A stretch of DNA of 64,000 nucleotides, taken from IMG/VR virus record IMGVR_UViG_3300024272_000009; one strand, given 5' to 3'. Every line of letters starts with the position of its first letter. Positions within the stretch are counted from its first letter, which is position 1. The notes under the pieces were generated by a model that saw only the letters and a list, made by a program, of their open reading frames with translations, had not been told where the DNA came from and searched no databases. This document shows, piece by piece, positions 6,778-57,401 of this stretch. Origin of the DNA: a virus. Lineage: Duplodnaviria; Heunggongvirae; Uroviricota; Caudoviricetes. A program made the translations under genes and the position numbers.

Positions 6778-6785
6778 AATTTAGC
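6778..6785 (-). promoter_or_regulatory. GCTAAATT box (conserved intergenic motif) upstream of nrdD
   Basis: Plus-strand aatttagc equals minus-strand GCTAAATT. It is one of at least 14 copies of this box in intergenic DNA. Confidence 0.5.
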
Positions 6786-6900
6786 TGATTACAGGGTCAA
6801 TTTTACCCTATAAAAGGAGCGGGACGACGAGTTTTACCTCATCGCCCCTGATGCCAATGAACACCACATACTCGCAATCACCTATAATATTATACGATAA

Positions 6901-7119
6901 TTACGGTGTTATTTTTTGATAAAAAGAGAAATAAATTCCGAGTCCATCGACATAAAGATAGTACTTCTCAGAGTTATTCGTTTCGGATACTACGAAATTC
7001 TTATACTTAAACTTATCTAAATAGATAGCTCCAACCGGTTCTTTCCGGATATTAAGTAGTTCAATTACCGGCGGGTTCTCAAGCTCAGCATAAGTCTGAA
7101 ATAGAGTAGTTAGTTCCAT
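6901..7119 (-). CDS. hypothetical protein
   Basis: 72-aa ORF. A GC-rich imperfect hairpin follows it at 6819-6849. Confidence 0.45.
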   Translation of the reverse strand: MELTTLFQTYAELENPPVIELLNIRKEPVGAIYLDKFKYKNFVVSETNNSEKYYLYVDGLGIYFSFYQKITP

Positions 7120-7553
7120 AAGTCCCTCTCGCCTCCTAAGAAAGAATACCAGAAGTGGCCATTCCCAAGATATTCATCGTACTCATCCAGCATACTTCGT
7201 AATACCGCAAGATCTCTCTCATAGAACTCAATAACGTTCTGCAGTCTATTATAAGCAAGAAGCTTTTCTACTACAGCAGATCCGGTAGCTACCTCACTAC
7301 AGTACTCCTTAAATAAGGTTGCAGAAGAATCTTTAAGAGCGTTAATAATTAACTTAGTTGCTTTATGGAATTTCCAGCAGCCTATAAAAGCATCCCAAGA
7401 AGTAATAAGCTGAAATTCTGTAATCTGTTCTTTTTCGGCTCGTTCAAATATTTCTGATAAAAGCTGTTGTGCTTCTGTTGTTTGCATAATACATCCTATA
7501 ACTAAATAAAATAAAAACGCCTTGATCGGAGGAATCATCAAGGCGTTTAACAA
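7110..7553 (-). CDS. hypothetical protein
   Basis: 147-aa ORF that overlaps the downstream gene by 10 nt. Confidence 0.5.
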   Translation of the reverse strand: MLNALMIPPIKAFLFYLVIGCIMQTTEAQQLLSEIFERAEKEQITEFQLITSWDAFIGCWKFHKATKLIINALKDSSATLFKEYCSEVATGSAVVEKLLAYNRLQNVIEFYERDLAVLRSMLDEYDEYLGNGHFWYSFLGGERDLWN

Positions 7554-7648
7554 AGGAGGAAACTTGTCTACAAGATTTTCATCTTATATTATATAATACA
7601 ATAAAAAATCGAAATTTTTAAATTGTCTCAGTAATTTTTTATGTATAC

Positions 7649-8161: not shown

Positions 8162-8274
8162 TTTAAATTACCATCCTATTAGTTTATTTATTTTCGTATA
8201 TTAAGTCCTCTCATAATATACGATATATTAAAATGAATTTCTAACCTGAGACTTATTAGTTATTCAGTTTAAAC

Positions 8275-9483
8275 TTAATTAAATCCGCACTTAAGGCAGA
8301 AACGTGTTTCAGCATCGTATGACTCACTGCCACATTCAGGGCAAGCAGTCAAACGCTTTCTGTAATCTGTAGCTTCTTCAAGAGTATCCACTTTAGAAGT
8401 GCTCTCCTCAAGCTCATCTACCGGAATTACCTGGACATCTTCGTTATTGTATCTATATTCTGGCCAAGTCTGTTCCATCTTAAGATAAGCTTCTTCTTCA
8501 GTAGTAGCTTCTACTGTACCAAGGTCATTACCATTAAGATAGCACATCCAAGTACGAGTTTCAGGATAACCACCATCGTAAGTATTTCCAAGGTCATGAA
8601 GTTCCTCTACATCTTCGTCAAGGAAATCCCAATAGTTTCCCTCTCGGAAAGTAAGAGTTTCACCTCTCGACTTAATAGCAGCTTCGCATCTACTGCAGAG
8701 CCATCCAAGGTCTACTTCATAACGACACTCACTTTTATCATAAAGTTCTTCGCACCAAGTGCACTTAACTATTCTGTCTTCGCAATCACCACAGAGCCAG
8801 CCAATATCATCTTTATGGAAACACTCGTCCTTAGGAAAGAGCTCTTCACAACCAGCACACTCAACCATGTCCTCGTTCTCTTGCATGGTCTCTACTAACT
8901 GCTCAATAGTCATTCCCTCAGGAATCGGCTTTCTTTGGCACTCCTCGATCTTAAAGTCATCTCCGAGTTCTGCTCTGTACTCTCTAAGCTTAGCAAGAAT
9001 ATTGCTGTCATCTGCACCAAACTCATCCATAAACTTCTTAAGGTCCGCACCTGTAACTATACCAATTTCGGAACAAAGCTTAAAAAACTCATCTCTGTCG
9101 GCATTATTAGTAAACGAAATTTCGGCACTTTCGTATAAGTCGTCATTAACAGCAAAAAAATCGTCATCTGCGAATTCAGGGTCAGTGTCTGGGTCGTAGT
9201 CACTCACAACGTCATCTTTAGAGAACTTAGTTTCAGGTTCTGCTTCGGGTTCTTCCATCTCATCTTCCCAAGACCAGATAGTTCCGAGATCAGAAGAGTC
9301 AGTACACTCACCAAAGTCATTTCTCTCTACCTCAGTCTGAGTGATAATAGGTTTCTTACTCATGCAACCTCTTGCGAAAGCTTTAGCATCATCAAAGAAA
9401 TCAAAGTGCTCATCTTCACAGTTAGGGCACTTTACAAAATAAATGTATGTTACCATTATGTAATTCTCCTTACAAAAATTCAA
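8275..9483 (-). CDS. acidic Cys-rich zinc-binding protein with tandem CxxCEEL...GWLC repeats
   Basis: 402-aa ORF with an AAGGAG RBS. It has an N-terminal CPNC, two tandem copies of C-x2-C-EEL-x-K-x-EC-x7-GWLC-x2-CE, and a C-terminal CPECG...CLKCG ribbon. Confidence 0.6.
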   Translation of the reverse strand: MNFCKENYIMVTYIYFVKCPNCEDEHFDFFDDAKAFARGCMSKKPIITQTEVERNDFGECTDSSDLGTIWSWEDEMEEPEAEPETKFSKDDVVSDYDPDTDPEFADDDFFAVNDDLYESAEISFTNNADRDEFFKLCSEIGIVTGADLKKFMDEFGADDSNILAKLREYRAELGDDFKIEECQRKPIPEGMTIEQLVETMQENEDMVECAGCEELFPKDECFHKDDIGWLCGDCEDRIVKCTWCEELYDKSECRYEVDLGWLCSRCEAAIKSRGETLTFREGNYWDFLDEDVEELHDLGNTYDGGYPETRTWMCYLNGNDLGTVEATTEEEAYLKMEQTWPEYRYNNEDVQVIPVDELEESTSKVDTLEEATDYRKRLTACPECGSESYDAETRFCLKCGFN

Positions 9484-9489
9484 TCGTAT

Positions 9490-9497
9490 AATTTAGC
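9490..9497 (-). promoter_or_regulatory. GCTAAATT box upstream of gene 8275..9483
   Basis: Coding strand reads TTGACG-N17-TTTGCTAAATTATACG. The RBS and ATG follow. Confidence 0.5.
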
Positions 9498-9509
9498 AAA
9501 CGAAATTGA

Positions 9510-9977
9510 TCAAGTTTCGTCAATAATTCCCGGCGTTCTAAGAATCCGGGTTGATTCCGAAATTAGGAAAGTTTCGTTCACTTCGCCGGCGACTAAGAAG
9601 ACTTTAAGTATCCGACCTTTGTAGCAGAGTCTAATATCTCTAAAGTCGCCGTTATGAAAATACTCTAATTTCGCGCCGGCGAAATCCGGACAATTACGGA
9701 AGTCAGTTATAAGGTCGAGTTCTCGATCCACAAACTTACACATATCTTCTTTGTAGTAGATATTGTTTAATCCTAGATCTACCAGCTTCCCTCTCCACTG
9801 AGCGAAACACTGATGACCGGGAGGATCAGAGAGGAAGTTCACAGTTTCCCCTCTGTACTCTATAGTATCGTAGCGAACTACTAATCCGAGTTCCCTGGCT
9901 TCCTTAGAGATCTCGAAGGATTGCTCTGAGTTCGTCGTCAAGCTTGTAGTTATTGGTGTTATTAAATTCGACTCCAT
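9510..9977 (-). CDS. hypothetical protein
   Basis: 155-aa ORF whose 5' end overlaps the 3' end of the SNF2 gene by 74 nt in another frame. Confidence 0.4.
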   Translation of the reverse strand: MESNLITPITTSLTTNSEQSFEISKEARELGLVVRYDTIEYRGETVNFLSDPPGHQCFAQWRGKLVDLGLNNIYYKEDMCKFVDRELDLITDFRNCPDFAGAKLEYFHNGDFRDIRLCYKGRILKVFLVAGEVNETFLISESTRILRTPGIIDET

Positions 9978-11645: not shown

Positions 11646-11747
11646 AGTTACGTATTTGAAATAAATGAGATTACCGAAATTACAGAAGTTACAGAATGAG
11701 ATTTTTGTAATTTCGGAAGTTACGCACGCCTTTACGCGCACGCGTAA
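11646..11747. repeat. iteron-like region: three AAGTTAC(G/A) direct repeats, an 11-bp inverted repeat and the CG palindrome TTACGCG-ca-CGCGTAA
   Basis: AAGTTACG is at 11646-11653 and 11717-11724, and AAGTTACA at 11687-11694. ccgaaattaca (11674-11684) pairs with tgtaatttcgg (11706-11716). The palindrome is at 11732-11747. Confidence 0.6.
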
Positions 11748-11753: not shown

Positions 11754-11808
11754 GGCTAAATTTGTGCTAAAAAACGCAAAAATGTGCAAATTAGCACTAA
11801 ATTTAGCC
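11754..11808. promoter_or_regulatory. 17/18-bp inverted repeat built from two GCTAAATTT half-sites (operator/terminator-like hairpin)
   Basis: ggctaaatttgtgctaa (11754-11770) and ttagcactaaatttagcc (11791-11808) are reverse complements with one bulge. The loop is 20 nt. Confidence 0.6.
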
Positions 11809-11822: not shown

Positions 11823-12128
11823 TTAGTCTAAGAGTGAGACATATTGGGTAGAAAAGTCCTTCTCTGGTGCTTCTGCCATAGTCTTATATGTAATAGTTGC
11901 TTCAACTACAAAGGGTTTATCACAGTAATCACAAATATAATGCTCAATCATGTCGGGTTCTTTTCCCTCTCGGTAGTCTTCATAAATGATCTTACCAAGA
12001 GAATCCTTTACTAAATCTTCCGGCTGGCCGATCAAGGCACCAGGTATATAAATTTCTCCCGGAAGGTATTGAGCACCACAATGTGGGCACTTAAAACTAG
12101 CTGATTTACGGGTGGTATTAGAACACAT
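11823..12128 (-). CDS. zinc-ribbon protein (CxxC...CxxC)
   Basis: 101-aa ORF with an AAGGAG RBS. The Cys pairs are CPHCG and CDYCD. The 11-mer CGCGCACGCGT flanks it on both sides. Confidence 0.6.
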   Translation of the reverse strand: MCSNTTRKSASFKCPHCGAQYLPGEIYIPGALIGQPEDLVKDSLGKIIYEDYREGKEPDMIEHYICDYCDKPFVVEATITYKTMAEAPEKDFSTQYVSLLD

Positions 12129-12701
12129 AATCTATCAAACTCCTTAAAATTCGAAAAATAAATTTTTTATGAAAAATAATTAGCACGCGCGCACGCGTCT
12201 AACGCTATATATATAATACTCCAGCGTTATATTATATATCTATAATAGATATATTTATTTTTTTTATATATTTTTTATTTTTATTTTAGATCTTGAGAAA
12301 AATATATAGCTATTGCGGCAAGCCGCTAGGCCGTTGGCCTATAGAGCTAAACAATATTTATTATTATAGATCTATATATAATAATATACAGTATAATATC
12401 TAGTAATTTATCAATTTATTAAAAAATTTTCAGAAAAATATGTTATTTATTGAGGCGAGCTATTAATTTATTAATTTAATAGTTTAATAAATATTTGCAA
12501 ACTTTTTGTAAATTATTTTCCGGGCACAGGTAGGTAAGGCTAGAACATCGACGACAGGGCTCCTTATTCTCTCTGTATCGAGTTTTATGGTAGGGGGCCT
12601 GGTGTTTATATGTCTGCAGTCTTAAACGCGAAATAGGTAGCTTAAAACGCGCCAAAACAAATTGTAAAAATAAAGGCCCCTGTGAAGAGGCCTTAAATTT
12701 A
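12129..12701. other. 570-bp non-coding AT-rich region with GC-rich mini-palindromes (candidate replication origin or packaging region)
   Basis: It contains no credible ORF. Runs of TA/TATATA are interrupted by gcggcaagccgc and ggccgttggcc palindromes, aacgct...agcgtt, and two AGATCT sites. It is the only large gap in an otherwise dense genome. Confidence 0.45.
12661..12694 (-). terminator. Rho-independent terminator after gene 12702..13817
   Basis: aaggcc (12673-12678) pairs with ggcctt (12689-12694) around a 10-nt loop. On the minus strand it is followed by tatttttaca. Confidence 0.6.
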
Positions 12702-13820: not shown

Positions 13821-14414
13821 TTATTCCTCTCTTTCTGCCGCGGACTCTATATGAGAAAGAACATCTTGGATTATTTCTTTAGTAGCATCAGAAAGATTCT
13901 TCTCCGGGTCGTCCATAGCTTTATTATAATAAAAATCAGAAAGTTCTTTTAGGTCTCCCTTATCTATAGAGAAGGAACCCCAGTCGCAGAGCATCTCAAG
14001 AATATAGATATAAGGCATGTCTTCTCCCAGCCAGAATTCAGGGTGATGCTCATTGTTCATCCAGTGATGCTTCCATGCTTCCTCATACTCGAAGGTCTTC
14101 TCTCCGTTGCCATACCACTTCTGAGCGTAAGGCTCGAACTCTTCTTCCGAGAATTTAGACTCATCGTGTTCATTAATAACTTCATGGAAAGCATCGAGGT
14201 CGACGCCCTCGAAAACTTCAGGACAATTTTCTTCTAGCCAGGAAGCAAACTTCTTTACTCTTTCTTTATGTGCTTCTATATACTCTTGATATTCTTTCTG
14301 ATAATCCGCTCCGCCCTCTGCTATAGCGCTAAGAGCATGAAGAGCATTAATAAAATTCATATTCATCTTTTCTTGCTGCCTTTCTATATAGATTAAAAGC
14401 TTCCAAGGAAGCAA
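13821..14414 (-). CDS. hypothetical protein
   Basis: 197-aa acidic ORF with His/Trp-rich motifs (HHWMNNEHHPEFW). Confidence 0.55.
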   Translation of the reverse strand: MLPWKLLIYIERQQEKMNMNFINALHALSAIAEGGADYQKEYQEYIEAHKERVKKFASWLEENCPEVFEGVDLDAFHEVINEHDESKFSEEEFEPYAQKWYGNGEKTFEYEEAWKHHWMNNEHHPEFWLGEDMPYIYILEMLCDWGSFSIDKGDLKELSDFYYNKAMDDPEKNLSDATKEIIQDVLSHIESAAEREE

Positions 14415-14497
14415 GCCTCAGAAGCAAGTAGTTAGCTATTTAAATAGGTTATATTAGATTTGAGTCTAACTATGCCAATCCTTTTTCCCATTCAATT

Positions 14498-14505
14498 AAT
14501 TTAGC
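14498..14505 (-). promoter_or_regulatory. GCTAAATT box
   Basis: Minus strand reads ACGCTAAATTAATTG, in the intergenic region upstream of gene 13821..14414. Confidence 0.4.
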
Positions 14506-14704
14506 GTAATATTTTTAACTTATTTATTATTTTAATAACTTGATGGTTTAATAAGGGGGCTTAAGGAAGAAAGAAGTTTTATTTATATATATGAAAAGGT
14601 ATAACTCATTTTATATATAGTAGGATTATTATATGTATTCTATATATGAGATTAAGAAGGAAATATAACTCATATTATTTTTTTTTCATGTCGGCCGAAA
14701 AAGA

Positions 14705-14740
14705 AAAAGAACGAATACTTTTTATACTCGTTCTTTTTAT
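14705..14740 (-). terminator. imperfect hairpin terminator after gene 14748..15902
   Basis: agaacgaata pairs with tactcgttct with one mismatch. T/A runs flank it on both sides. Confidence 0.5.
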
Positions 14741-14747
14741 TATTTAA

Positions 14748-15902
14748 TTAGTTCCACATATCTTCGTATATCTTAAAGTCGTCGGCAAAGGAAGTAGACT
14801 CACATAAGTCGGTATCTCCTATAATACCTTCGATAATTAAAAGCTTTAGAACATCTTCAAAAGTATCACAGTTATTATCATAGCCGTCGACTTGAACTAA
14901 GTAGCAAGGAACATAAGGTTTAAAAATTATTTTTACTCCGACTCCGTTATTAAGAGTAATAGCAAGTATTCTATCATCTAATATATTAATAGTATACTTA
15001 CAAAATCCGTCTGAGTCAATTTGGGCTAAAAGCTTTTTATATCTTTCTGTTTGGTCTGGATAATTTTTAGTAGAAGTCTTATTAGTTGTCTGTGCAGCAG
15101 AATTGTTTAAATTTATCTTTTTTCCATTCTTATCTACAAACTCATTAAGTGCCGACTCACAGAGATTAGTATCTTTAATAATTTTTCCTATTACTAATAA
15201 TTCCAGAATATCTTTTTTGTAGTCACAGCCTTTAAGCTCACGTCCAAGCATTCTCAGAGTATATGTGTCAGTAGCAGGGTCATAGATTATTTTAATATCT
15301 AAAGTTTTATTATTAGGACGGTTTACTGTAATATTAAGTTCGGTAGCATTTAAATCATTTAATGTATAAGTGCTAATGCCATCAGCATCTATTTGTGCCA
15401 CTAGACTTTTATATCTGTCTGTCTGATCAACATTGTTTTTGATAGAAGTACTTGTGGTGGGTGTCGAAGAAGAGATACTTACTTTATTTCCTTTACTGTC
15501 TAGCCACTCACATAGTTTATCATATTCCTTTGTACCAGATACAGGAACATTATAATAACCCTCGAGAGCTTCTAATAAAGTCTCCCATGATTCTCCTGCA
15601 TAGTTATCTACACATTTACCGTTTTTATAGATACTCATGTGCCAACGATCATCGGTAAAAATTACTACGGCAATTAGTTCTTCTTGACCAGTTGGTATCT
15701 TACGTAATTCTCTGTAAGTAAAGCCAGTATCATTAAGACCTAGCACTTTAGAATCAAGCACTTGAGAACCTCTGTTTCTCATTATATAATAAAGTAAACT
15801 AATAAACTTATCTTTATTTGTTTTAGTCATAGTAGCGGCCGTTGCAGACGAAGCCTGTCCAATTTTATTTCCGTTACCATCTTTCCATTCGTTTAATTTC
15901 AT
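14748..15902 (-). CDS. hypothetical protein with internal ~115-aa tandem domain duplication
   Basis: 384-aa ORF. Residues around NVDQTDRYKSLVAQIDADG...DTNLCESA repeat as NYPDQTERYKKLLAQIDSDG...DTDLCEST. An xEWxDxxGNK linker recurs three times. Confidence 0.6.
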   Translation of the reverse strand: MKLNEWKDGNGNKIGQASSATAATMTKTNKDKFISLLYYIMRNRGSQVLDSKVLGLNDTGFTYRELRKIPTGQEELIAVVIFTDDRWHMSIYKNGKCVDNYAGESWETLLEALEGYYNVPVSGTKEYDKLCEWLDSKGNKVSISSSTPTTSTSIKNNVDQTDRYKSLVAQIDADGISTYTLNDLNATELNITVNRPNNKTLDIKIIYDPATDTYTLRMLGRELKGCDYKKDILELLVIGKIIKDTNLCESALNEFVDKNGKKINLNNSAAQTTNKTSTKNYPDQTERYKKLLAQIDSDGFCKYTINILDDRILAITLNNGVGVKIIFKPYVPCYLVQVDGYDNNCDTFEDVLKLLIIEGIIGDTDLCESTSFADDFKIYEDMWN

Positions 15903-15938
15903 AGGGTTTGTCCCTTTCTGTGATATTTTCTTACGTAT

Positions 15939-15946
15939 AATTTAGC
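15939..15946 (-). promoter_or_regulatory. GCTAAATT box upstream of gene 14748..15902
   Basis: Minus strand reads TTTGCTAAATTATACGTAAG, about 40 nt before the ATG. Confidence 0.5.
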
Positions 15947-15952
15947 AAAAGA

Positions 15953-16451: not shown

Positions 16452-17138
16452 TTACGCGGCCTTCTGAAGTTTAGTCCAGTTATACCAACCGTAGAAAGCA
16501 TTAGCAGTCCAAGCAATATACATAGCAACCATAGACCACTGACCGAGAATAATAAACATAACCAAACTTACTACATCGATAAGAATCCAGCACGCCCACT
16601 GTTCTCTATATCTCCAAATCATAAGAAGCTGGGCAATAACAGCAAGAGCAACAGTCATAGCATCAAGATAAGGAAGGGTGCTTCCGAGAACGGCTTCACC
16701 GAAATAACCAAGAAGGAAAGTACTTACCGCTACTACGCCAACAGACCCAAGCCACTGCCAAAGCTTAAACTTCTTTGCCTTAACCTGTTCAGTACCGTCG
16801 TCATTCTTCTTCATATTCTTCTTCCACATAAAAACGCCGAAGATACAAACAATAAAGTAGAACACCTGTTCGCCAAACTCAAGATAGAGAGCAAGGTCCC
16901 AGCAAATAATCATATAAGTAATCATCTGCACAAAGTTAAAGATATACGAAGAAATCTTTCCCTTTGCTGTGAGAGCGACACAGATAACACCCGCAAGTCC
17001 ACAGATAATTCCGATAGCAGTGTCAGGGACGATGAAATACATAATTACCTGAAGCAAAATCAAGGAAGCGAAAAAGATTCTCTCAAAAGCCGTGTAGCCG
17101 TTCCAAAATTCATTCTTAAGCCATTTTACCATTTTCAA
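16452..17138 (-). CDS. pnuC: nicotinamide riboside transporter PnuC-like membrane protein
   Basis: 228 aa with about 7 predicted TM helices. It is Trp-rich, with conserved W/N-containing helices typical of PnuC. It overlaps the nadR-like gene by 23 nt. Confidence 0.65.
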   Translation of the reverse strand: MKMVKWLKNEFWNGYTAFERIFFASLILLQVIMYFIVPDTAIGIICGLAGVICVALTAKGKISSYIFNFVQMITYMIICWDLALYLEFGEQVFYFIVCIFGVFMWKKNMKKNDDGTEQVKAKKFKLWQWLGSVGVVAVSTFLLGYFGEAVLGSTLPYLDAMTVALAVIAQLLMIWRYREQWACWILIDVVSLVMFIILGQWSMVAMYIAWTANAFYGWYNWTKLQKAA

Positions 17139-18225
17139 TAATCTCCTTTACATCATCAACAATTTTCTTAAAGTTATTATAATATCCGCCGTCGAGGATA
17201 ACTACCTTATCCCAATTACCTGAAGCTTTGATATTGTTACAAAGAATCTCAAAGAGTTCTCTTCTTTCTGTATCGCCGCTGAAAGCCATGTATCTAGTAT
17301 GGTCGTCTACAAATACTCCGTGAGGGCAGAGAAGATAAATTTTATCCCAACGACATTTCTTAGTGATCGCATCCGCAGCAACAGCGATTTCTTTAAACTC
17401 TTCCTCAGTTAGGTCGAGATCAGGGTCTCTGTGATAATACTCAGCATACATTCGAGTAGTCATACTATCAGAGTCTGCGAAGAAGATTCCCTGATTACTT
17501 GGCGAGTTGATGAGTTTCTTATTCATCTGATACTGACCGTCAAGAAAAGCAAGATAGTCAGCCCCGTCGAGTTCCCACTCAGAAATATAACTTTCTTCCA
17601 TATAGTCTCTTGCATATTCAGTAGAATAGGGTGCGTTGAAATACTTACCAAGGTCTTTTACAAGAGTAGTTTTTCCTTCACTTGCTGTGCCGCAGATAAG
17701 AATATTAGTACTGAAGACTCTTCTGAAGGGAAAAGTAATTTTATCCCAATACTTAATAGGATTATGTCTGATCATTGTCGCAGAAATAGGGTTAAGTGTT
17801 CTATCAAGTAACACCACTTCATAGCCAAGACTTTCAAGATGAGTAGCATATGCCTCCTCGCTTACATAGAAAACAGCCTCGCACAAATCTGTAGCATTTC
17901 TGATAATCTCATTTACCTTAAGCATAAACTTATTCCACCCATTAGGATAAGCTTCGATACCAAGCTCAGTCTCATCGATAGGGTAAACAGCCACAAGGTC
18001 GTCGTCGGCAAAGAACTCTCTTACATAACGATAACGCTTTCTAAGAGGCATAAGCTCACCACCACGATCTCCGTCTCTACCGTCTACGATAACAATACAA
18101 CCACCGTCGCATTCTTTCTTAGCTCGCATAATAACATCAAGGTGTCCCTGATGAAGCGGAGCAAAAGTTCCGAAGACAACACCAACTGTTTTACCTTGCA
18201 AAGGCTTCTGATAAGTATAAATCAT
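17116..18225 (-). CDS. nadR: NadR-like bifunctional NMN adenylyltransferase / ribosylnicotinamide kinase
   Basis: 369 aa. The N-terminal nucleotidyltransferase motif is GVVFGTFAPLHQGHL (GxFxPxHxGH). The C-terminal P-loop kinase domain carries ICGTASEGKTT. There is no N-terminal HTH, as in Haemophilus-type NadR. Confidence 0.8.
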   Translation of the reverse strand: MIYTYQKPLQGKTVGVVFGTFAPLHQGHLDVIMRAKKECDGGCIVIVDGRDGDRGGELMPLRKRYRYVREFFADDDLVAVYPIDETELGIEAYPNGWNKFMLKVNEIIRNATDLCEAVFYVSEEAYATHLESLGYEVVLLDRTLNPISATMIRHNPIKYWDKITFPFRRVFSTNILICGTASEGKTTLVKDLGKYFNAPYSTEYARDYMEESYISEWELDGADYLAFLDGQYQMNKKLINSPSNQGIFFADSDSMTTRMYAEYYHRDPDLDLTEEEFKEIAVAADAITKKCRWDKIYLLCPHGVFVDDHTRYMAFSGDTERRELFEILCNNIKASGNWDKVVILDGGYYNNFKKIVDDVKEIIENGKMA

Positions 18226-18291
18226 TTACGTCCTCCTTAATCACTTTGTAATATATAATACAATATGAAATTTATTAAATTAATAAATTAA

Positions 18292-28579: not shown

Positions 28580-28625
28580 TATAAAAGTCCTTTCTCTAAG
28601 ATATATAGCTTTTGACTACTATATA

Positions 28626-28633
28626 ATTTAGCA
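28626..28633 (-). promoter_or_regulatory. GCTAAATT box
   Basis: Minus strand reads TCTGCTAAATTATATAG, between the tube terminator and the RHH gene. Confidence 0.5.
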
Positions 28634-28654
28634 GAACAATAAATAGATTTATTA

Positions 28655-31062: not shown

Positions 31063-31129
31063 ACTAATTATATCTCCTTGTTTAATTTAATAACTTTAAT
31101 TGTTGAAAGTTCTTTTTGCAACTTCAAAT

Positions 31130-31137
31130 AATTTAGC
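31130..31137 (-). promoter_or_regulatory. GCTAAATT box upstream of the sheath-like gene
   Basis: Minus strand reads TCTGCTAAATTATTTG. Confidence 0.5.
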
Positions 31138-31140
31138 AGA

Positions 31141-31794
31141 TTATTTTATGCTACATTCAAATAAAATTTCTTCTTCTGTAGGGTCAGAAATTTTGTCAGC
31201 AGCAGTAACTTCAATACCTACGATACGCCAGTTTTGCTTCTGAGGTATACTAAATAGGAAACCATCTTGAAGCTCCAACTGAATAGTCCACTTATAAAAC
31301 TGTCCGGCAAATAGATGTGATGGTATATCACTTGTATCAGATACTGTATTAAGTACTCTTAGATTTGCAGTATGTTTTACAACATAATTATTATAAGGAA
31401 TTTCTATAATAATTTGCGGATTATTTATAAGCTTAAATAGATATTGTCTAACATACTCATCAGCCTCAATTCTTTTCTTTGTGTAAATATCTAACTGATA
31501 AGTAGTTTTTACTGGGATAACATTTAAATGAATAGTTGCTGCAGTAGTAGCATCTTGCCCAATTACTAAGCCATCAAAAGATTTATTTTGTTTGATAGTG
31601 GATTCTATTTCTAAATCCCTATTTCTTGATATTGCAATTAGAGGTAACTTAAGCGGTTCGTCATTGGTATCTTCAGCATGTAACTGAATTAGTCTATTAG
31701 ACTCATCTGGTGCTAATACTCTTAGTTTAGAAGAGTCAGCTAGCCAGCCTTTGATTTTTTGAGTAACCGCTTCATCATAGTAGTTTATTGCCAT
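31141..31794 (-). CDS. hypothetical structural (neck/tail terminator region) protein
   Basis: 217-aa ORF between the head and tail modules. Confidence 0.35.
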   Translation of the reverse strand: MAINYYDEAVTQKIKGWLADSSKLRVLAPDESNRLIQLHAEDTNDEPLKLPLIAISRNRDLEIESTIKQNKSFDGLVIGQDATTAATIHLNVIPVKTTYQLDIYTKKRIEADEYVRQYLFKLINNPQIIIEIPYNNYVVKHTANLRVLNTVSDTSDIPSHLFAGQFYKWTIQLELQDGFLFSIPQKQNWRIVGIEVTAADKISDPTEEEILFECSIK

Positions 31795-36663: not shown

Positions 36664-36692
36664 TATTTTAACTCCTTGCTAACTAATCAATT

Positions 36693-36700
36693 AATTTAGC
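36693..36700 (-). promoter_or_regulatory. GCTAAATT box
   Basis: Minus strand reads TTTGCTAAATTAATTG. Confidence 0.5.
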
Positions 36701-36719
36701 AAATAATTTTAATAATGTA

Positions 36720-40102: not shown

Positions 40103-40132
40103 AATCGTCCTCTTAGTTACAGCGTTCTAAAT

Positions 40133-40140
40133 AATTTAGC
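40133..40140 (-). promoter_or_regulatory. GCTAAATT box
   Basis: Minus strand reads TCTGCTAAATTATTTAG. Confidence 0.5.
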
Positions 40141-40182
40141 AGATAATAAATTAATAATTAAATAATTTAATAATAATTTTTA

Positions 40183-40557: not shown

Positions 40558-40634
40558 TTTTAACTCTCCTTATAGGTGATAATTTTTAATTAATTTAATT
40601 TAAGATGTTTAATTACACATCTTTATGATCAATT

Positions 40635-40642
40635 AATTTAGC
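40635..40642 (-). promoter_or_regulatory. GCTAAATT box
   Basis: Minus strand reads TTAGCTAAATTAATTG. Confidence 0.45.
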
Positions 40643-40670
40643 TAATATTTTTGTATTAAAATTAAATAAA

Positions 40671-46243: not shown

Positions 46244-46277
46244 TGCTGGACTATCCTTTCAAAATGTTCTACTGTAT

Positions 46278-46285
46278 AATTTAGC
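46278..46285 (-). promoter_or_regulatory. GCTAAATT box
   Basis: Minus strand reads TTTGCTAAATTATACAG. Confidence 0.5.
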
Positions 46286-46295
46286 AAATAAATTT

Positions 46296-47802: not shown

Positions 47803-48564
47803 TTAATCCTCCATTCTATCTAGTCGCATAGGAATAACAAACTTGAGATTACAACCGTCACAACATCTGCCATCATCTGCAGACATAAAAGGCTCAGGGT
47901 TATTTCCATGACCTTCGATAGGTTCACCACAAATACAACAAAAGCTTTCTTTTGCTTCTGTTAGTTTTTCACCAAATACATTAACAGCGTCAAAATCAAG
48001 ATTAAAGAAGCTCTCCTCAAGTTCTGTTGCGTCTGTCATTCTATCCTCATACTCTGCCTTAAATTCTTTTTCAGGAGCTTTGTCCACGTTAGCAAAGTGT
48101 TTACGGTCCTCTTCTTTCTTAATTGAGAGGTCGTAGTCCATTACTTTTACTCTATTTTTATCATAAAGAATACCATCATCATAATAATAAATAATGTCAC
48201 TATTCATAAGTTTAGTTACATCTTTATCATCTCCAAGATTATTTAGAGTATAAACAGAGCAGTTAGCATTATCTAGTTCAATAAGAGCTTTTAAGATCTC
48301 AGCTTTATTTGAACAGAAGATATTTTGAGGACGAATATAGTATCTACGAACGTAACGTTTAGCCTCCTTTAGCTCAACACTTTCAGTCATACCACAGCCT
48401 TCAGTGCCTTCAGCAGAAGTCTCCACACAGTCTGTCCCCATAGCCTGATTGAATCTACCTATATTTAAAGAAATATCACCAGTTGTATATGTGATAGAAT
48501 CATAAGGCTTTTTCTTAGTTTTTAGTTTTTTCTCCTCTGTAATAGGAGTTTTATTTATTTTCAT
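47803..48564 (-). CDS. hypothetical Cys-rich protein
   Basis: 253 aa. The C-terminus reads CCICGEPIEGHGN...CCDGCN. A GC-rich leader precedes the RBS. Confidence 0.45.
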   Translation of the reverse strand: MKINKTPITEEKKLKTKKKPYDSITYTTGDISLNIGRFNQAMGTDCVETSAEGTEGCGMTESVELKEAKRYVRRYYIRPQNIFCSNKAEILKALIELDNANCSVYTLNNLGDDKDVTKLMNSDIIYYYDDGILYDKNRVKVMDYDLSIKKEEDRKHFANVDKAPEKEFKAEYEDRMTDATELEESFFNLDFDAVNVFGEKLTEAKESFCCICGEPIEGHGNNPEPFMSADDGRCCDGCNLKFVIPMRLDRMED

Positions 48565-48651
48565 TGAAAGATACTCTCCTTCTTGTTATTTACAAAGAAA
48601 GACGACCACAGCAACGGTGAAAGGCTAAGTCCGCCGCCGCGACCGTCATAT

Positions 48652-48659
48652 AATTTAGC
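48652..48659 (-). promoter_or_regulatory. GCTAAATT box
   Basis: Minus strand reads TTTGCTAAATTATATGACG. Confidence 0.5.
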
Positions 48660-48661
48660 AA

Positions 48662-48697
48662 ATAAAGAAAAGCACTCTAAATATTTAGAGTGCTTTT
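48662..48697 (-). terminator. Rho-independent terminator after gene 48702..49118
   Basis: The palindrome is aaagcactctaaata / tatttagagtgcttt. Confidence 0.75.
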
Positions 48698-52052: not shown

Positions 52053-53507
52053 TTAAAGTGAGAAGTCGAAACTCTTAATACGGTTTAGTGCGTCAGCTGA
52101 GCTAACCTTTGCAGCAGCACCTGCCGCAGATGCAGTTGAACCGAAGAGGTCAGTATCAGTCTCATCACCGCCAGCACCGAATACACTATCAAAATCATCA
52201 CTATCTGAAGTAGTACTCTTAGCGCTTGAAGTTGTTGGGGCAGGCTCTTCATTGTTATCTCCGGCACCTGGCATAATAACGTCAGGCTCAACCCAAGAAT
52301 CAAGGATCTCATGGATTATTTCTTTATCCTTATCTAGGAATTTAGACTTTTGGTCTACCCAAGCAAGGAATTTATTTTTATCATGACCATGTTTCATAAT
52401 AGCGTCGGTAATTGAGCGCTGGTTTAACATCTTTGATTTTGTCTGAAACAAGTCAAGTAAGTCATCGCGTGAGTCAAACTCAAAACGATAGTCTGCAAGC
52501 AATGCGTTAGCTAAATTTAATCTCTTCTTAGCTCTAATGTAAAGAGCATTGTAATTCTCGTCATGAGGAATGCTCTTAATAACTTTTTCAGGAATGTACC
52601 AGTTAATATATTTAATTGCTTCCTCAGGAGTAGAGTCCCAATCCATAGTGTCTACAAAACGAGACATTTCAGCGTCATTAAGCTCCATTGCGCCAGGGTC
52701 TGTGGGAACTGCAGGGTTAATACAAGCTACAGTAAAGAGCAGGTTATCAAAGTGTCTATAACCATCAGGACCATTACCGTCAATTACGTGCTCATTAATT
52801 AGTGAAAGAAGTACGGCACGAAGCTTAGCAGGAGCTCTGTTAAATTCATCAAGGAATAGTACAGATCTTTCTTTGTCTAGCGCATCAAGTGAGTTAGAAT
52901 AAGATCTAGCTACTGTATGTACACTTCTGCCATCATCTGTTGTTTCTGTTGTATCAACAGGGAAACCGTTAAGGATAGCGCCGAGGTCATCGTTTTTAGC
53001 ATTGAGGTAGAATAGATTTACACCTCTATCCCTTGCCCACTGCTTTGTGATACCGGTTTTACCGGAACCAGGAAGTCCTGAAATTAGAATGTCAGTACCA
53101 TCATGAGTACCAATAGCTTTAGACTCGAATGAAGCCGCAAGGCAGTCATCAAGCGCATCAGTAAGAGCACTTCTTACATCAAGAGGTGCCCAAGTAGCAG
53201 TATCAAAGCCTTTAGCATAAGTCTTGATTTCATTTGCTACTTTTTCTGCTTTAGCATCGGAGTAAGTTTCCTCGCCATCAGAAGCTTCTTCAGCAGCAGC
53301 CTTAACTGCGTCAGCGATTTCATCTACAGGCGCATTTACAACATTATCGATAACTAGCTCGTCCGCAGAAGCTTCAGCGGCTGTATCTTCAGCCTCAGTA
53401 ATAACTTCTTCTACAAGCTCTGTATCTAAAATACTTTCAGTTATAATTTTATTAATTTTCATTGTTATCCTCCTATTAATCTTTGCGCATCCAAGTGTGC
53501 AGCTCAT
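52053..53507 (-). CDS. MoxR-like AAA+ ATPase
   Basis: 484 aa. Walker A is GLPGSGKTG. Walker B and sensor follow as LFLDEFNRA, the hhhDEhNRA pattern typical of the MoxR/AAA_5 family. N- and C-terminal acidic extensions flank the core. Confidence 0.65.
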   Translation of the reverse strand: MSCTLGCAKINRRITMKINKIITESILDTELVEEVITEAEDTAAEASADELVIDNVVNAPVDEIADAVKAAAEEASDGEETYSDAKAEKVANEIKTYAKGFDTATWAPLDVRSALTDALDDCLAASFESKAIGTHDGTDILISGLPGSGKTGITKQWARDRGVNLFYLNAKNDDLGAILNGFPVDTTETTDDGRSVHTVARSYSNSLDALDKERSVLFLDEFNRAPAKLRAVLLSLINEHVIDGNGPDGYRHFDNLLFTVACINPAVPTDPGAMELNDAEMSRFVDTMDWDSTPEEAIKYINWYIPEKVIKSIPHDENYNALYIRAKKRLNLANALLADYRFEFDSRDDLLDLFQTKSKMLNQRSITDAIMKHGHDKNKFLAWVDQKSKFLDKDKEIIHEILDSWVEPDVIMPGAGDNNEEPAPTTSSAKSTTSDSDDFDSVFGAGGDETDTDLFGSTASAAGAAAKVSSADALNRIKSFDFSL

Positions 53508-54477
53508 CTAGTTCTTCCTTGCTACAGCCTTCTGTAGCCTTTTTCCAGCCGCCAGAAAGGTCTTCAGTAACACCTTCATTAAGTGCTTCATTTAAGGTTT
53601 TAGCACTAACGGCTACTACACCAAATTCAGTACCAACAAGGAAATAGCCATTTGGGTCTGCCTTCATTTTAACGACACGTAGATTATTAATATTAGCAGG
53701 CACACGGTTAGCTGCTACAATCTTATCTAAGAAAGTCTGAGCCTCATTAGGGTCATCAAAATAGCATGTACAGTCTGTATAACCGTTACCGCTACTGATA
53801 AAAATCTTATTAGTATTTCCGGTTGCACCAGAAGAACTTAGAGGCTTAATAAACACATTAGGAGTGTTTTTACCTACCTTATCAGCAATAATTTTATAAA
53901 TAAGGCTAGTATCTGCGGTCACCTTATCACCTGGATTACCTTGTAGGTCTCTAACATTACCGGACTGAGGACCAGACTGCTTATAATTATTTTGAGGCGC
54001 AGAAGGTGCAACCTGAGCACCACCAGTAGAAGCTGTGGCAGAGCTCTGTGCAGTCTTACCAGAAAGCGCTGAAATATATCTGCCATACTTATAAACAGCT
54101 TCACCTAAAAGTGTTTTCTTAAATTCTGTTATCTCATAAGGAGTTCTAATAGTATCATCCCAATACAAGCCAACACATTCTGCCATATAAACCACAGCTT
54201 TAGCGATAGCTTCAGGCTTATAGCGGAAGTAACGTCCTCCATTCATAGGCTCAAAGCCATAATACGAGACATTTTTAATAGCTGCATCAACATCTTTAAA
54301 CTCACGTTCAACAAGCTCTGTACAAATTTGCTGTGCTGCACCAATAAAGCTGCTTGAGAAATTAGTAGAACCGCCGCTTCTTTGGTTACTTGTTCTAATT
54401 CCACCTGCCAGAGTCAAGTCATGCATTACAAGTTTTGCTTTCTGCTCTGACTCAGGTGTAGTAAAAATACGAGCCAT
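53476..54477 (-). CDS. hypothetical protein
   Basis: 333-aa ORF with a Gly/Ser/Gln-rich middle. It overlaps the AAA gene by 32 nt. Confidence 0.45.
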   Translation of the reverse strand: MARIFTTPESEQKAKLVMHDLTLAGGIRTSNQRSGGSTNFSSSFIGAAQQICTELVEREFKDVDAAIKNVSYYGFEPMNGGRYFRYKPEAIAKAVVYMAECVGLYWDDTIRTPYEITEFKKTLLGEAVYKYGRYISALSGKTAQSSATASTGGAQVAPSAPQNNYKQSGPQSGNVRDLQGNPGDKVTADTSLIYKIIADKVGKNTPNVFIKPLSSSGATGNTNKIFISSGNGYTDCTCYFDDPNEAQTFLDKIVAANRVPANINNLRVVKMKADPNGYFLVGTEFGVVAVSAKTLNEALNEGVTEDLSGGWKKATEGCSKEELDELHTWMRKD

Positions 54478-54522
54478 AATAACTCTCCTTTATTTATTTT
54501 TGTAATTATTAAATTATCAATT

Positions 54523-54530
54523 AATTTAGC
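54523..54530 (-). promoter_or_regulatory. GCTAAATT box
   Basis: Minus strand reads TTGCTAAATTAATTG, upstream of gene 53476..54477. Confidence 0.45.
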
Positions 54531-54539
54531 AATTAATTA

Positions 54540-56408
54540 CTAATCAATACTGATAATTCCTCTGCATTTAGGGTAGGCAGAGCAACCATAGAATAGTTTT
54601 CCAAATCTGCTTCTTCTAACTACCATAGGTTTGCCGCAATTTGGGCACTCTTTCTCTGGCATCTCTGGAGCAATACCGGTTTCATTAGTGGCTCCAATAA
54701 TATCTTGTAAATTTTTATAGAAATTTTCCATAAAGTCAAGCCAAAGAATTTTACCGCCGGCAATTTTATCAAGGCTTTCTTCCATTTCTTTAGTATAATT
54801 TAAATTTATTAAAGTAGGGAATGACCTATTACAGTAGTCAGCTAATTGCATACCACGATCAGTAGGAACAATGTGCTTTTCTTCCAACTTTGCGTAACCT
54901 CTTGTTGGGCTTAAAATTGTTTCTACTATTGTTACATAAGTAGATGGTCGGCCGATACTTCTATTCTGAAGCTCTTTAACTAAACTTGCCTCTGTATACC
55001 TAGGCTTAGGTTGTGTAAATTTTTTAGCTGCCTCAAGCTCAGCATCTTCCAAGGTTTCGCCAACGGTAAATATAGGCGTAGAAGCTATGTCAGAAGTATC
55101 ATCGTATTCATATACTGCTTTATAACCAGCACTTAAAAGCTCTTTTGAGCTAAGCGTAAATTTATGCCCGTTATTATTAATTATATAAATTGTTTCTGAA
55201 ATAACTGCATTTGGCATTGCTGAAGCAACAGTACGTTGCCATATTAGCCTATAAACTTTTGCAAGTAGTTCATTGCCAGTGGTAGCCTCTACAATATCTG
55301 GAGTCAGATTCGGGTTTGTGACTCTAAGGGCTTCGTGCCCATCTTGGTCTGTTTCTTTTTGTTTAGACTTTCTTGGCCCTACATAACTGGCTGCGCCGTA
55401 AGTATTTTCTATAAAAGTTTTTAGTTCTGGAATAAATTCTTGTGCAAATTCCGTAGAGTCTGTACGCATATACGTAATCAAACCAATGTGTTCGCCAGCT
55501 AGACTAATTCCTTCAAAGAGTTTTTGCGCACAGCTCATAGCATCTTTTACTTTAAGACCGAGCTTATTCGCTGCCTCCTGTTGAAAAGTAGCAGTACAAA
55601 ACGGCGGTTTTGGAGACTCTTGGTGCTTAACCACTTTGGTATCTTCAATTATATAAGCACCACCTTTGCAGTTGTTTATAACCGCATCAACGTCAGCTTG
55701 CCTTGAAAATTTATCAATAACCTCGTCATTATACCCAGCATATTTTGCTTTAAAAGCTGTACCATTTTTTATAAAGTTTAAATATAGATTAAAATACATT
55801 TCTGGTACAAAATCCATAATTTCTTTTTCTCTGTCTGAAACAAGTTTAAGTCCAACGGACTGACACCGCCCAACTGACTTAGCACCAAGATACTTTTTCG
55901 CTAAAGGACTAAGACCGTAGCCAATAAGTTTATCTATCATCATTCTGGTTAGCCCAGCATTTACGATATTATCATCAAAAGGTACAGGATTTTCTAATGC
56001 ATATACAACTGCTTTAGGTGTTATTTCATGCATAACGATCCTAAAGCACTTGTCAACAGGCAGTTCACAAAATTTAATTAAGCTCCACCCAATTACAAAG
56101 CCTTCTCTATCTTGGTCGGTTCCAATATAAATTTTATCTGCAATTTTTGCCTGTGCGATAATATCTGCTACTACTTTTTGCTTATCATCAGCAATAGCCA
56201 GATTCATTCTAAATTTTTGCTTTGGATATATGCCTGAATTATAAGCAGGTCCACCATCGCCAAGTTTCATAATGTGACCGACAGAGGCCATTACTACTGC
56301 TTTTGCATAACCAGCCTTTTTCAGTATTCCTGAGATAGTTTTTACCTTATTAGGCGATTCGACTATTACAAGTATCCTTTCATTGTTTGTTTTCACTTTG
56401 CTGCTCAT
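54540..56408 (-). CDS. type IA DNA topoisomerase (Topo I/III-like) with C-terminal zinc ribbon
   Basis: 622 aa. The TOPRIM motif reads ILVIVESPNKVKTI. The acidic triad reads IYIGTDQDREG. The C-terminal ribbon is CPNCGKPMVV...CSAYPKC. Confidence 0.85.
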   Translation of the reverse strand: MSSKVKTNNERILVIVESPNKVKTISGILKKAGYAKAVVMASVGHIMKLGDGGPAYNSGIYPKQKFRMNLAIADDKQKVVADIIAQAKIADKIYIGTDQDREGFVIGWSLIKFCELPVDKCFRIVMHEITPKAVVYALENPVPFDDNIVNAGLTRMMIDKLIGYGLSPLAKKYLGAKSVGRCQSVGLKLVSDREKEIMDFVPEMYFNLYLNFIKNGTAFKAKYAGYNDEVIDKFSRQADVDAVINNCKGGAYIIEDTKVVKHQESPKPPFCTATFQQEAANKLGLKVKDAMSCAQKLFEGISLAGEHIGLITYMRTDSTEFAQEFIPELKTFIENTYGAASYVGPRKSKQKETDQDGHEALRVTNPNLTPDIVEATTGNELLAKVYRLIWQRTVASAMPNAVISETIYIINNNGHKFTLSSKELLSAGYKAVYEYDDTSDIASTPIFTVGETLEDAELEAAKKFTQPKPRYTEASLVKELQNRSIGRPSTYVTIVETILSPTRGYAKLEEKHIVPTDRGMQLADYCNRSFPTLINLNYTKEMEESLDKIAGGKILWLDFMENFYKNLQDIIGATNETGIAPEMPEKECPNCGKPMVVRRSRFGKLFYGCSAYPKCRGIISID

Positions 56409-56562
56409 TAGATCTCTCCTTATGTAAACTTTCTTCTAAGAGTTGTCTAATAACAGCAGAAATACTAACTGAACGTTTGAAAGCTTCTAATCTAAGCTCT
56501 TCTCGTAATTCGTCAGATATTTCTAAGCTTATCATCTTCTTTGCCATTATTTTATTCCTCAC
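56380..56562 (-). CDS. ribbon-helix-helix DNA-binding protein
   Basis: 60 aa. KMISLEISDELREELRLEAFKRSVSISAVIRQLLEE shows the RHH beta-alpha-alpha pattern. It overlaps the topoisomerase start by 29 nt. Confidence 0.5.
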   Translation of the reverse strand: MRNKIMAKKMISLEISDELREELRLEAFKRSVSISAVIRQLLEESLHKERSNEQQSENKQ

Positions 56563-57347
56563 TTATGAGACTTTTTGTGTACTTTTGACACAAAGTTTTT
56601 AAACTCGGCTCTTTGTCTGGCCTTTTCAGAGGCACCTGCCGTCGCAATAGCTTTGTTAGCTGCCTTATTTGCCTTTGCATGTCGGTCTGTCTCGTGCTCA
56701 GACTCTACTACTGTAATACGACCATTGATAACATTTTCAGTAAACTTGAGATTTCTAAACTGCTTAGCAGCAACATCGTCTGATTCGATAACAGTCTTTA
56801 AACTTTCGATACGCGCAGGTAAGAAGGTATCTTTGTAGAAAGGAATAATCTCAGCAAGGTCTGACTCTTCGATCTTGCCATCTTCTTCAATGTCAGAAAC
56901 AAGGCCAAGCGCACTAGGAAGAACTCCGTCAATAATTTGAGCCTGTTGATCAAACATGCTTGCCGCAATGCCTATAAGCTTGTTATCTTCGTACTTAAAA
57001 TCATCATTGTAATAAACAACAGTAATTTCTTCAGGTCTACCGATTACAATCTCTTTGCCAGGCATTGATGCACAGGTTTCGATAACAATGTTGAGGCCCT
57101 TCTTTTTCGTGATAATAGGGTTAATAAAAGTCTTAATCTGGTCATTAAATCTTAAACAAAAGATACGCTTATTAATACCAATCTGAGGAGCAGAAAGTGC
57201 AATAAGATCTGGATTCGCATTAAGAACTTCTTTGATCTTGCTGATAATCTCAGTGCCTTCCTCAGTTTTAGGACCTTCTTCTGTTAAAAATGTTAAAGGT
57301 TCTACTGGTGTGCTAAGTACTTCAGCATCAGTAATAATTGTTTCCAT
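56559..57347 (-). CDS. peptide deformylase-like protein with degenerate catalytic motif
   Basis: 262 aa. PDF motif I is present as ALSAPQIG, and motif II is ETCAS (EGCLS-like, Cys kept). In place of HEXXH the sequence reads QQAQIIDG. A C-terminal K/A-rich extension of about 100 aa follows. Confidence 0.5.
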   Translation of the reverse strand: METIITDAEVLSTPVEPLTFLTEEGPKTEEGTEIISKIKEVLNANPDLIALSAPQIGINKRIFCLRFNDQIKTFINPIITKKKGLNIVIETCASMPGKEIVIGRPEEITVVYYNDDFKYEDNKLIGIAASMFDQQAQIIDGVLPSALGLVSDIEEDGKIEESDLAEIIPFYKDTFLPARIESLKTVIESDDVAAKQFRNLKFTENVINGRITVVESEHETDRHAKANKAANKAIATAGASEKARQRAEFKNFVSKVHKKSHK

Positions 57348-57393
57348 TTAAATATCTCCTTATAAATCTAAATATACAATATATTATACATTA

Positions 57394-57401
57394 AATTTAG
57401 C
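57394..57401 (-). promoter_or_regulatory. GCTAAATT box plus TGTATAAT element upstream of the PDF-like gene
   Basis: Minus strand reads GGCTAAATTTAATGTATAATATATTG. It is followed by AAGGAG and the ATG. Confidence 0.5.

Follow-up and report, generated by a model that had tools for sequence, protein, structure and literature searches.

A strand-specific intergenic box, probably the core of a phage-specific late promoter, in the virus record IMGVR_UViG_3300024272_000009

Results

Boxes in the Window and the Genes That Follow Them

The 64,000-nt stretch of DNA analyzed here (the window), from the IMG/VR virus record IMGVR_UViG_3300024272_000009 (Caudoviricetes), carries all of its genes on the minus strand, so that transcription runs from position 64000 toward position 1. 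A short conserved box with the core GCTAAATTA recurs in its intergenic DNA. A weight matrix trained solely on the box sites of related phages, and then applied to the window, detected 13 sites with scores of 12.3–29.4 bits, all of which were intergenic and on the coding strand. The best hit below these sites reached 8.5 bits, and no hit on the opposite strand reached 8 bits. The sites and the genes downstream of them are as follows.

Box 1, 57388..57405, minus strand: weak variant GCTAAATTT, 12.3 bits, upstream of the peptide-deformylase-like gene 56559-57347; a box of another class, TGTATAATATA (class B, described below), follows directly
Box 2, 54517..54534, minus strand: 25.5 bits, 44 nt 5' of gene 53476-54477 (333 aa, no assigned function)
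Box 3, 48646..48663, minus strand: 28.9 bits, 8 nt past a terminator hairpin and 86 nt 5' of gene 47803-48564
Box 4, 46272..46289, minus strand: 27.0 bits, 19 nt past a terminator and 33 nt 5' of gene 45287-46243
Box 5, 40629..40646, minus strand: 25.5 bits, past a terminator and 76 nt 5' of gene 40183-40557
Box 6, 40127..40144, minus strand: 26.8 bits, 29 nt 5' of the prohead protease gene 38192-40102, which is followed in the same unit by the major capsid gene 36789-38120, without a box of its own
Box 7, 36687..36704, minus strand: 29.4 bits, 25 nt past a terminator and 28 nt 5' of the head-tail adaptor gene 35941-36663
Box 8, 31124..31141, minus strand: 25.5 bits, 66 nt 5' of the tail sheath gene 29311-31062, followed by the tube gene 28709-29290
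Box 9, 28619..28636, minus strand: 18.8 bits, 27 nt past a terminator and 5' of a 54-aa open reading frame (ORF) and the baseplate hub gene 27618-28400
Box 10, 15933..15950, minus strand: 18.8 bits, 9 nt past a terminator and 35 nt 5' of gene 14748-15902
Box 11, 14492..14509, minus strand: 19.7 bits, about 130 nt 5' of the DUF5662 gene (13821-14414)
Box 12, 9484..9501, minus strand: 20.9 bits, just past the stop of ORF 9510-9977 and 32 nt 5' of the ATG at 9456 of gene 8275-9456; conserved in the relatives L047 and L048
Box 13, 6772..6789, minus strand: 16.8 bits, 44 nt 5' of nrdD (4522-6732), which also has the box in front of it in L047, L048, and L043, the last a very distant relative

The other genes downstream of boxes encode a zinc-ribbon protein and several proteins of no assigned function, some of them near the helicase. 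An initial annotation, made from the letters of the window and a list of its ORFs, had proposed a regulon covering most structural genes. Most structural operons are indeed preceded by a box, but so are nrdD, the DUF5662 gene, and genes of no assigned function near the helicase. Of the 13 plus-strand coordinates that it had listed for the 8-mer core, 12 were exact, and the remaining one (28626) should read 28625. The spacing of 20–45 nt to the start codon that it had given was too narrow; the distance from the box end to the start codon was 28–130 nt, with 9 of the 13 boxes lying within 28–45 nt.

Frequency and Extent of the Motif

Exact matches to GCTAAATTA numbered 12 in the window, all on the minus (coding) strand, against a mean of 2.03 and a maximum of 7 in 100 dinucleotide-preserving shuffles. 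This comparison with shuffled sequence, which the initial annotation had itself suggested, confirmed that the repeated box is real. The 8-mer GCTAAATT had 14 coding-strand copies in the window, every one of them non-coding. On the opposite strand, four copies were found, one within a palindrome (11755) and three antisense within genes (50213, 52510, and 57763). Non-coding DNA makes up 6.9% of the window, and the probability that all 13 matrix sites would land there is approximately 7e-16. A looser pattern, TGCTAAATT, searched with one mismatch allowed, showed no enrichment in the window (38 observed vs. 41.7 expected); therefore, the signal resides in the exact core.

The extent of the motif was examined by aligning the 14 window copies and 100 distinct intergenic copies from related phages. 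The full motif is 18 nt long, ttATTtGCTAAATTAwwT(G/A)(A/G), and is fitted by the 13 window sites, comprising the 12 exact GCTAAATTA matches and one weaker variant; the conserved motif is longer than described initially. While the G, the C, and TAAATT are invariant by construction of the alignment, the A after TAAATT was present in 95% of the 100 family sites, and conservation extended both upstream (A at -4, 85%; T at -3, 91%; T at -2, 80%) and downstream (T/C at +11, 96%; purine at +12, 94%; purine at +13, 93%). Positions +8 to +10 relative to the G were A/W/W, with A/T directly after the box. A Y-R-R stands at the expected start-site position, and T-R-R is conserved 2–4 nt past the box. No conservation of a -35 element was observed, as the information content did not exceed 0.5 bit from -45 to -7 relative to the G, a region that is merely A/T-rich.

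Conservation in Related Phages

A search of IMG/VR with the portal protein yielded 39 related loci (559 kb), with portal identities of 46–83%, GC contents of 31–51%, and contigs of up to 233 kb. In these loci, GCTAAATTA occurred 156 times in the forward direction (on the coding strand) and not once in reverse, and 38 of the 39 carried the box. The box was kept in 49 of 53 orthologous upstream regions of the window genes that have one, in contrast to 1 of 85 such regions for genes that are boxless in the window (portal, major capsid, and others). By gene, it was found at the orthologous site in 19/20 cases for the protease, 13/13 for the adaptor, 8/8 for gene 40183-40557, 3/3 for the sheath, and 6/9 for gene 45287-46243. 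In the alignments of the relatives, the box formed an island of identity amid diverged flanks, at a varying distance from the start codon. It was also retained in relatives with a GC content of 49–51%, where the composition would not predict an A/T-rich word. Arrays of early genes without the box were found at 1-6700 of the window and in L044, L045, and L052, downstream of the sigma gene.

The strand bias bears on whether the box might be an operator or activator site for a phage DNA-binding regulator, located beside a weak promoter. Near-palindromic sites exist (GCTAAATTATTTAGA), the GC is flanked by an ATTT...AAAT dyad, A/T-rich TTAATAAATTATTAA-like repeats lie 5' of several boxes, and small putative DNA-binding proteins are encoded in the window (gene 11823-12128), all of which would suit such a regulator. 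A symmetric operator, however, would not need the absolute polarity of 156 forward to 0 reverse copies. Further, each site has just one copy, with a degenerate downstream half (TTAG, TTGA, TACA), and the interval between terminator and gene offers no other conserved element that could serve as the promoter. We regard this explanation as very unlikely.

Megablast of the window DNA (20 kb) against 50,697 phage records gave no match. The portal protein is of the T4 gp20 type, and tblastn with it matched 779 phage records, mostly of Tequatrovirus. Its best matches were large myoviruses of Gram-positive hosts, namely Streptococcus phage vB_SagM-GXN1, Listeria LIS04, and Bacillus SP-15, at 25–31% identity; the nearest cultured relative by portal, vB_SagM-GXN1 (31% identity), is without the box. 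Genes of the gp46/gp47 type, nrdD, and nrdG are also present. As judged from sequence, the gp20-type portal and the gp46-like, nrdD, and nrdG genes place the phage in the T4 superfamily. Contigs carrying the same genes reach 220–243 kb, indicating a jumbo-sized genome. The source is most likely a jumbo phage of the gut that is uncultured and a distant relative of T4, and its host is likely a gut anaerobe with a Gram-positive-style ribosome-binding site. Relatives were binned into metagenome-assembled genomes from yak and water-deer caecum. The window also encodes a PnuC-like transporter and a NadR-like adenylyltransferase (16452-18225), a link to the “NAD-jumbo phages” of animal guts, which share PnuC/NadR genes and were described without discussion of their promoters (PMC11662467). 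No paper on the motif was found in the literature, and full-text matches to the motif string were unrelated primer sequences.

Terminators and Leaders around the Boxes

A hairpin followed by a T-run, typical of a terminator, lies 8–59 nt upstream of 7 of the 13 boxes, in agreement with the terminator-box cassettes noticed in the initial annotation. Upstream hairpins were also detected family-wide, with a mean z of -2.68. No conserved element other than the box was found between terminator and gene, and the distance from the box to the start codon varied from 28 to 140 nt. Canonical sigma-70-type promoter matches were not enriched in the structural region (61 vs. 54 ± 8 expected).

This arrangement is relevant to the idea that the box acts in RNA, as a processing or regulator-binding site in 5' leaders. 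The box is strand-specific and located in leaders, and hairpins often follow it; family-wide, a leader hairpin starts 10–15 nt from the G after 40% of the sites. Against this, the boxes directly past terminators would usually remain untranscribed from upstream, their spacing to the ribosome-binding site is variable, and they gave no Rfam match. Moreover, a promoter would still be required, and no other one is conserved. A role in RNA thus appears scarcely credible.

Several other features were observed around the boxes. The box at 48659 is followed by a stable 17-bp leader hairpin that begins at the predicted 5' end (window 48565-48650, minus strand), and at the matching position a relative of 49% GC carries a hairpin whose stem sequence differs (L014:2610-2665). 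A/T-rich TTAATAAATTATTAA-like repeats directly adjoin the 5' side of some boxes and that of a single class B site (57405-57450, 40145-40182, and 18262-18310). Many relatives keep them 5' of the protease box, and they might act as an UP-element or be bound by an architectural protein. A 333-nt non-coding stretch at 14415-14747 has a terminator at its start, and the box at 14505 lies unusually far, about 130 nt, from the next start codon. A small RNA or an ORF missed by the annotation could fit in between, and Rfam gave no match there. Rfam and tRNA scans of the whole window also returned no matches.

Other Putative Promoter Classes in the Genome

Two further classes of promoter-like sequences, both resembling TATAAT-type promoters, were found in the genome.

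Class A promoters, 3894, 3055, 2178, and 1036, minus strand: canonical early-type promoters, (G)TTTAC(A/T)-N17-TGnTATAAT
Class A promoter of the sigma-like gene (the one at 1036), 1028..1056, minus strand: canonical host-type, TTTACT, 17-nt spacer, TGTTATAAT
Class B sites, 63050, 57390, 45271, 20123, 19620, 18262, 16434, 7600, 6896, and 97, minus strand
Class B sites outside the window: L061:4251, before the SbcD homologue, and L043, near 4060

Class A consists of TTTAC(A/T), a 17-nt spacer, and TGnTATAAT, and its four copies precede small ORFs of the region 1-4033, including gene 134-994. In three of the four (3894, 3055, and 2178), GTAAG occurs approximately 10 nt downstream. In the more distant relative L052 (48% GC, with a sigma homologue of 36% identity), about ten early promoters each carry CTAC(T/C)GCGTT upstream of TGnTATAAT. 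Class B, atat(T/C)GTAT(A/T)ATATA, i.e., (T/C)GTATAATATA, contains a perfect TATAAT with a G immediately before it and no -35 element. Its ten window sites are intergenic and on the coding strand, with none located within genes. The class precedes the genes for the large terminase, NAD salvage, and the SbcD homologue as well as small ORFs, and may be a middle-class promoter. Because classes A and B of the same genome look different from the GCTAAATTA box, the latter is a third class, distinct from the TATAAT-type promoters.

The initial annotation had considered that TGC-TAAATT could act as an extended -10 element, and the box might accordingly be an ordinary promoter of the host primary sigma (TGn-TAAATT) that needs no phage factor. 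Of the TATAAT consensus, TAAATT retains the key T at -12, A at -11, and T at -7; in 9 of the 14 window sites the GC has a T before it, and a generic scan called one box (46285) as TTGATA-17-TAAATT. However, a T stands before the G in just 60% of the 100 family sites, with A or C at several sites of L014 and L024, whereas the G, the C, and the A after TAAATT are conserved at 95–100%. Contacts of sigma-70 do not account for the C and the non-consensus TAAATT, both invariant by construction of the alignment, for the A after them, or for the upstream ATT. In addition, perfect TGnTATAAT and TATAAT promoters exist elsewhere in the genome, and the box sequence is constant across relatives with GC contents of 31–51% and portal identities down to 46%. 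An ordinary host promoter is quite improbable on these grounds, and the box appears to behave as a phage-specific promoter, in line with the original suggestion.

The Sigma-Like Protein 134-994 as a Candidate Reader

Among the early genes of the window, one encodes a protein that might read the box.

Candidate reader, 134..994, minus strand: 286 aa, with a sigma domain-2 fold at the N-terminus, then an acidic linker and, at the C-terminus, an HTH/winged-helix-like domain

The AlphaFold model, based on 50 family members, had a pLDDT of 91, and the protein has a sigma-factor (domain 2) fold. A weak match to the PHROG family phrog_351, “sigma factor”, was obtained (E 2.7e-6), and 2 of the 50 family members gave a weak Pfam hit to Sigma70_r3 (E 0.003). 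When the family profile was compared by hhalign with a profile built from nine gp55 proteins, the two aligned over 94 columns (probability 67%, E 5e-5), pairing gp55 residues 30-124 with residues 35-132 of the 134-994 protein and sharing a DETK motif. The gene is found approximately 3 kb downstream of nrdD-nrdG, a location like that of gene 55 in T4. A tblastn search of the 50,697 phage records found no homologue, while one search of metagenomes yielded 1,283 homologues and another yielded 399 clusters at 50% identity. Contigs with homologues at 100%, 72–76%, 43%, and 28% identity all carry the box, and in the most distant of them (28%) it precedes nrdD. Because of its sigma fold and the canonical -35/extended -10 early promoter in front of its gene, the 134-994 protein, already called sigma-like in the initial annotation, is a sensible candidate, and we infer that it is the leading one. 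An RHH protein, another of the readers that had been proposed, found no support in any of the evidence.

Two other early proteins (1092-1847 and 2424-3011) were considered as sigma candidates and rejected, as they showed no paralogy with the sigma-like family. A 190-aa ORF just outside the window (L061:3636-4208) lies just 5' of the SbcD homologue, a place that several T4-like phages give to gene 55 (55-47-46); the ORF was rejected as gp55 on the basis of no detectable similarity. Phmmer searches of all window ORFs with T4 gp55, gp45, gp44, gp62, and rpbA gave nothing but gp46, nrdG, and a weak gp44 match, and a clamp-loader-like gene lies just outside the window (L061). In distant relatives, a 138-aa HATPase_c_2 protein of the anti-sigma SpoIIAB/RsbW type is encoded three genes downstream of the sigma homologue.

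HATPase_c_2 protein: L043:12059-12475, L044:2543-2959, L045:2681-3097

Alternatively, the box could be the promoter of a phage-encoded RNA polymerase, either multisubunit (phiKZ/AR9-like) or single-subunit, that is encoded outside the window and acts independently of the host core and sigma. The genome is jumbo-sized, with contigs to 220–243 kb of which 64 kb were inspected, several large window proteins are without annotation, and conservation reaches up to the predicted start site, as in phage-polymerase promoters. In contrast, PHROGs and Pfam scans revealed no polymerase-like protein among the approximately 67 window ORFs or in the flanks, an encoded sigma-fold protein makes sense solely with a host-type core, and the virion module is T4-like rather than phiKZ-like. 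The box also resembles the T4/Aeh1 late box, which is read by gp55 (PMC1524935). We consider a phage polymerase unlikely.

Comparison with Known Promoters and Proposed Function

The late promoters of T4 consist of an 8-bp box, TATAAATA, at -13 to -6, with A/T-rich DNA downstream and no -35 element; the minimal sigma gp55 reads them, acting with gp33 and the gp45 clamp (PMC2988020, PMC1524935). The Aeromonas phage Aeh1 has a variant with CTAAATA from -12 and (a/g)C at -13/-12 (PMC2988020, PMC1524935). These late boxes, which the initial annotation had missed, are the closest precedent for the box described here. When its G is placed at -13, GCTAAATTA agrees with the Aeh1 box GCTAAATA in 7 of 8 positions and with the T4 box TATAAATA in 5 of 8, and the conserved purine then falls at +1. 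The core TAAAT is the same as in T4, and GCTAAAT is the same as in the Aeh1 variant (A/G)CTAAATA. As in T4, a short conserved A/T-rich -10 box without a -35 element is followed by A/T-rich DNA and stands before orthologues of virion genes (protease and capsid, adaptor, sheath and tube, and baseplate hub). Also as in T4, there is a gp20-type portal, and a sigma-fold protein with weak similarity to gp55 is encoded near nrdDG. Neither TATAAATA nor GCTAAATA in its canonical form was enriched in the intergenic DNA of the window; therefore, the variant is specific. A sigma-54 reading, with TTGCT as the -12 element, was also tried and rejected, as the logo shows no GG 10 bp upstream.

The box nonetheless differs from T4 TATAAATA in having T rather than A at -6 and a further conserved A (GCTAAATTA), and conservation of the upstream ATT(t) and downstream T-R-R brings it to approximately 18 nt, compared with 8 bp in T4. 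Whereas T4 late promoters occur on both strands, all boxes here lie on one. Unlike gp55, the candidate sigma is 286 aa long, carries an extra C-terminal HTH-like domain, and has no pairwise-detectable identity to gp55. Extended -10 promoters (TGnTATAAT) share with the box the independence from a -35 element, the G at -14, and TAnnnT, but in the box the T of TG is unconserved, the C (-13), TAAATT, and the following A are invariant, and the genome's own extended -10 promoters are different. Large Bacillus phages of the SPO1 type use a cascade of sigma factors, gp28 and then gp33/34. In such a cascade an early phage sigma redirects the host core enzyme to middle and late promoters, as could be the case here, and the host context is likewise of low GC and Gram-positive-looking. 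The promoters of SPO1, however, are bipartite (-35 and -10) and have other sequences, whereas the box is without a -35 partner.

Taken together, these data led us to propose that the box forms the core of a T4-type late (or middle-late) promoter that is specific to the phage, with a single A/T-rich -10 element and no -35 element, a reading to which we assign a probability of roughly 0.6. GCTAAATTA would then most likely be a new sequence variant of the known T4-style late-promoter mechanism, probably read by a highly divergent phage-encoded sigma on the host core RNA polymerase. Promoter activity, start site, late timing, and the identity of the reader are all predicted from sequence. According to this proposal, host RNA polymerase with the host primary sigma would transcribe the early genes from the canonical -35/extended -10 promoters, and the sigma-like 134-994 protein would be one of the early products. 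This protein, or a phage sigma encoded outside the window, would displace the host sigma on the host core enzyme and bring the core to the boxes, thereby turning on the head, neck, tail, and baseplate operons along with a few others, including nrdD. The terminators just upstream would insulate every unit. When aligned to the T4 late box, GCTAAATTA would span -13 to -5, and transcription would start at the conserved purine(s) 4–5 nt past the box, after the conserved T.

Several observations weigh against this proposal. Boxes also precede nrdD and other non-structural genes, and the partial palindromes seen at some sites (CTAAAT-T-ATTTAG) would fit a dimeric DNA-binding protein as well. Class B is a second phage-specific box that the 134-994 sigma could read instead. 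As for the protein itself, no hit was obtained with Pfam (including Sigma70_r2/r4) or with the family profile against PDB sequences, and a Foldseek search of the model against PDB gave nothing significant. The hhalign probability for the gp55 profile is just 67%, the same family aligned with the single T4 gp55 sequence gave no match, and the protein is 100 aa longer than gp55 with its extra C-terminal domain. Phmmer detected no homologue of T4 gp45 among the window ORFs. Finally, the window represents approximately 30% of a roughly 220-kb genome.

In a more specific and rather doubtful version of the late-promoter proposal, the 134-994 family would constitute a new sigma architecture, combining a gp55-like domain 2 with a winged-helix-like C-terminal domain. 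Across a large clade of jumbo phages from the gut, it would serve as a late sigma sufficient on its own, reading the contiguous ~18-bp ATTt-GCTAAATTA-wwTRR around -10 with no -35 spacing and no gp33/gp45 clamp coupling.

If the box is a late promoter, its map would provide a ready map of late transcription units for a widespread clade of uncultured animal-gut jumbo phages, and the “-10 box only” type of late promoter would extend far beyond Straboviridae, to phages with Gram-positive-looking ribosome-binding sites. A simple and strict promoter with a candidate sigma would make a pair testable in vitro or usable as an orthogonal expression part. The conserved box could also serve as a marker to orient and annotate fragmentary contigs of the clade.

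The Palindrome at 11754-11808 and Nearby Repeats

One locus that the initial annotation had counted among the boxes is of a different kind.

Palindrome, 11754..11808: 55 bp, imperfect, each arm containing the 8-mer (11755, plus strand; 11807, minus strand)

The copies in the palindrome carry the 8-mer without the box flanks and scored less than 8 bits in the matrix scan, and the region forms a long hairpin with a U run after it (z = -4.97), 3' of gene 11823-12128. For these reasons the palindrome is a different element, and it was excluded from the box set; it looks like the terminator of gene 11823-12128. It is followed by a second, GC-rich hairpin, ACGCGTGCGCGT, at 11730-11745 and by 14-nt inverted repeats at 11674-11716, and all of these features lie upstream of the SNF2 helicase gene. 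On the other side of gene 11823-12128, a 573-nt A/T-rich non-coding stretch (12129-12701) has GC-rich islands and numerous short repeats, both direct and inverted, and may be a replication origin or a regulatory hub.

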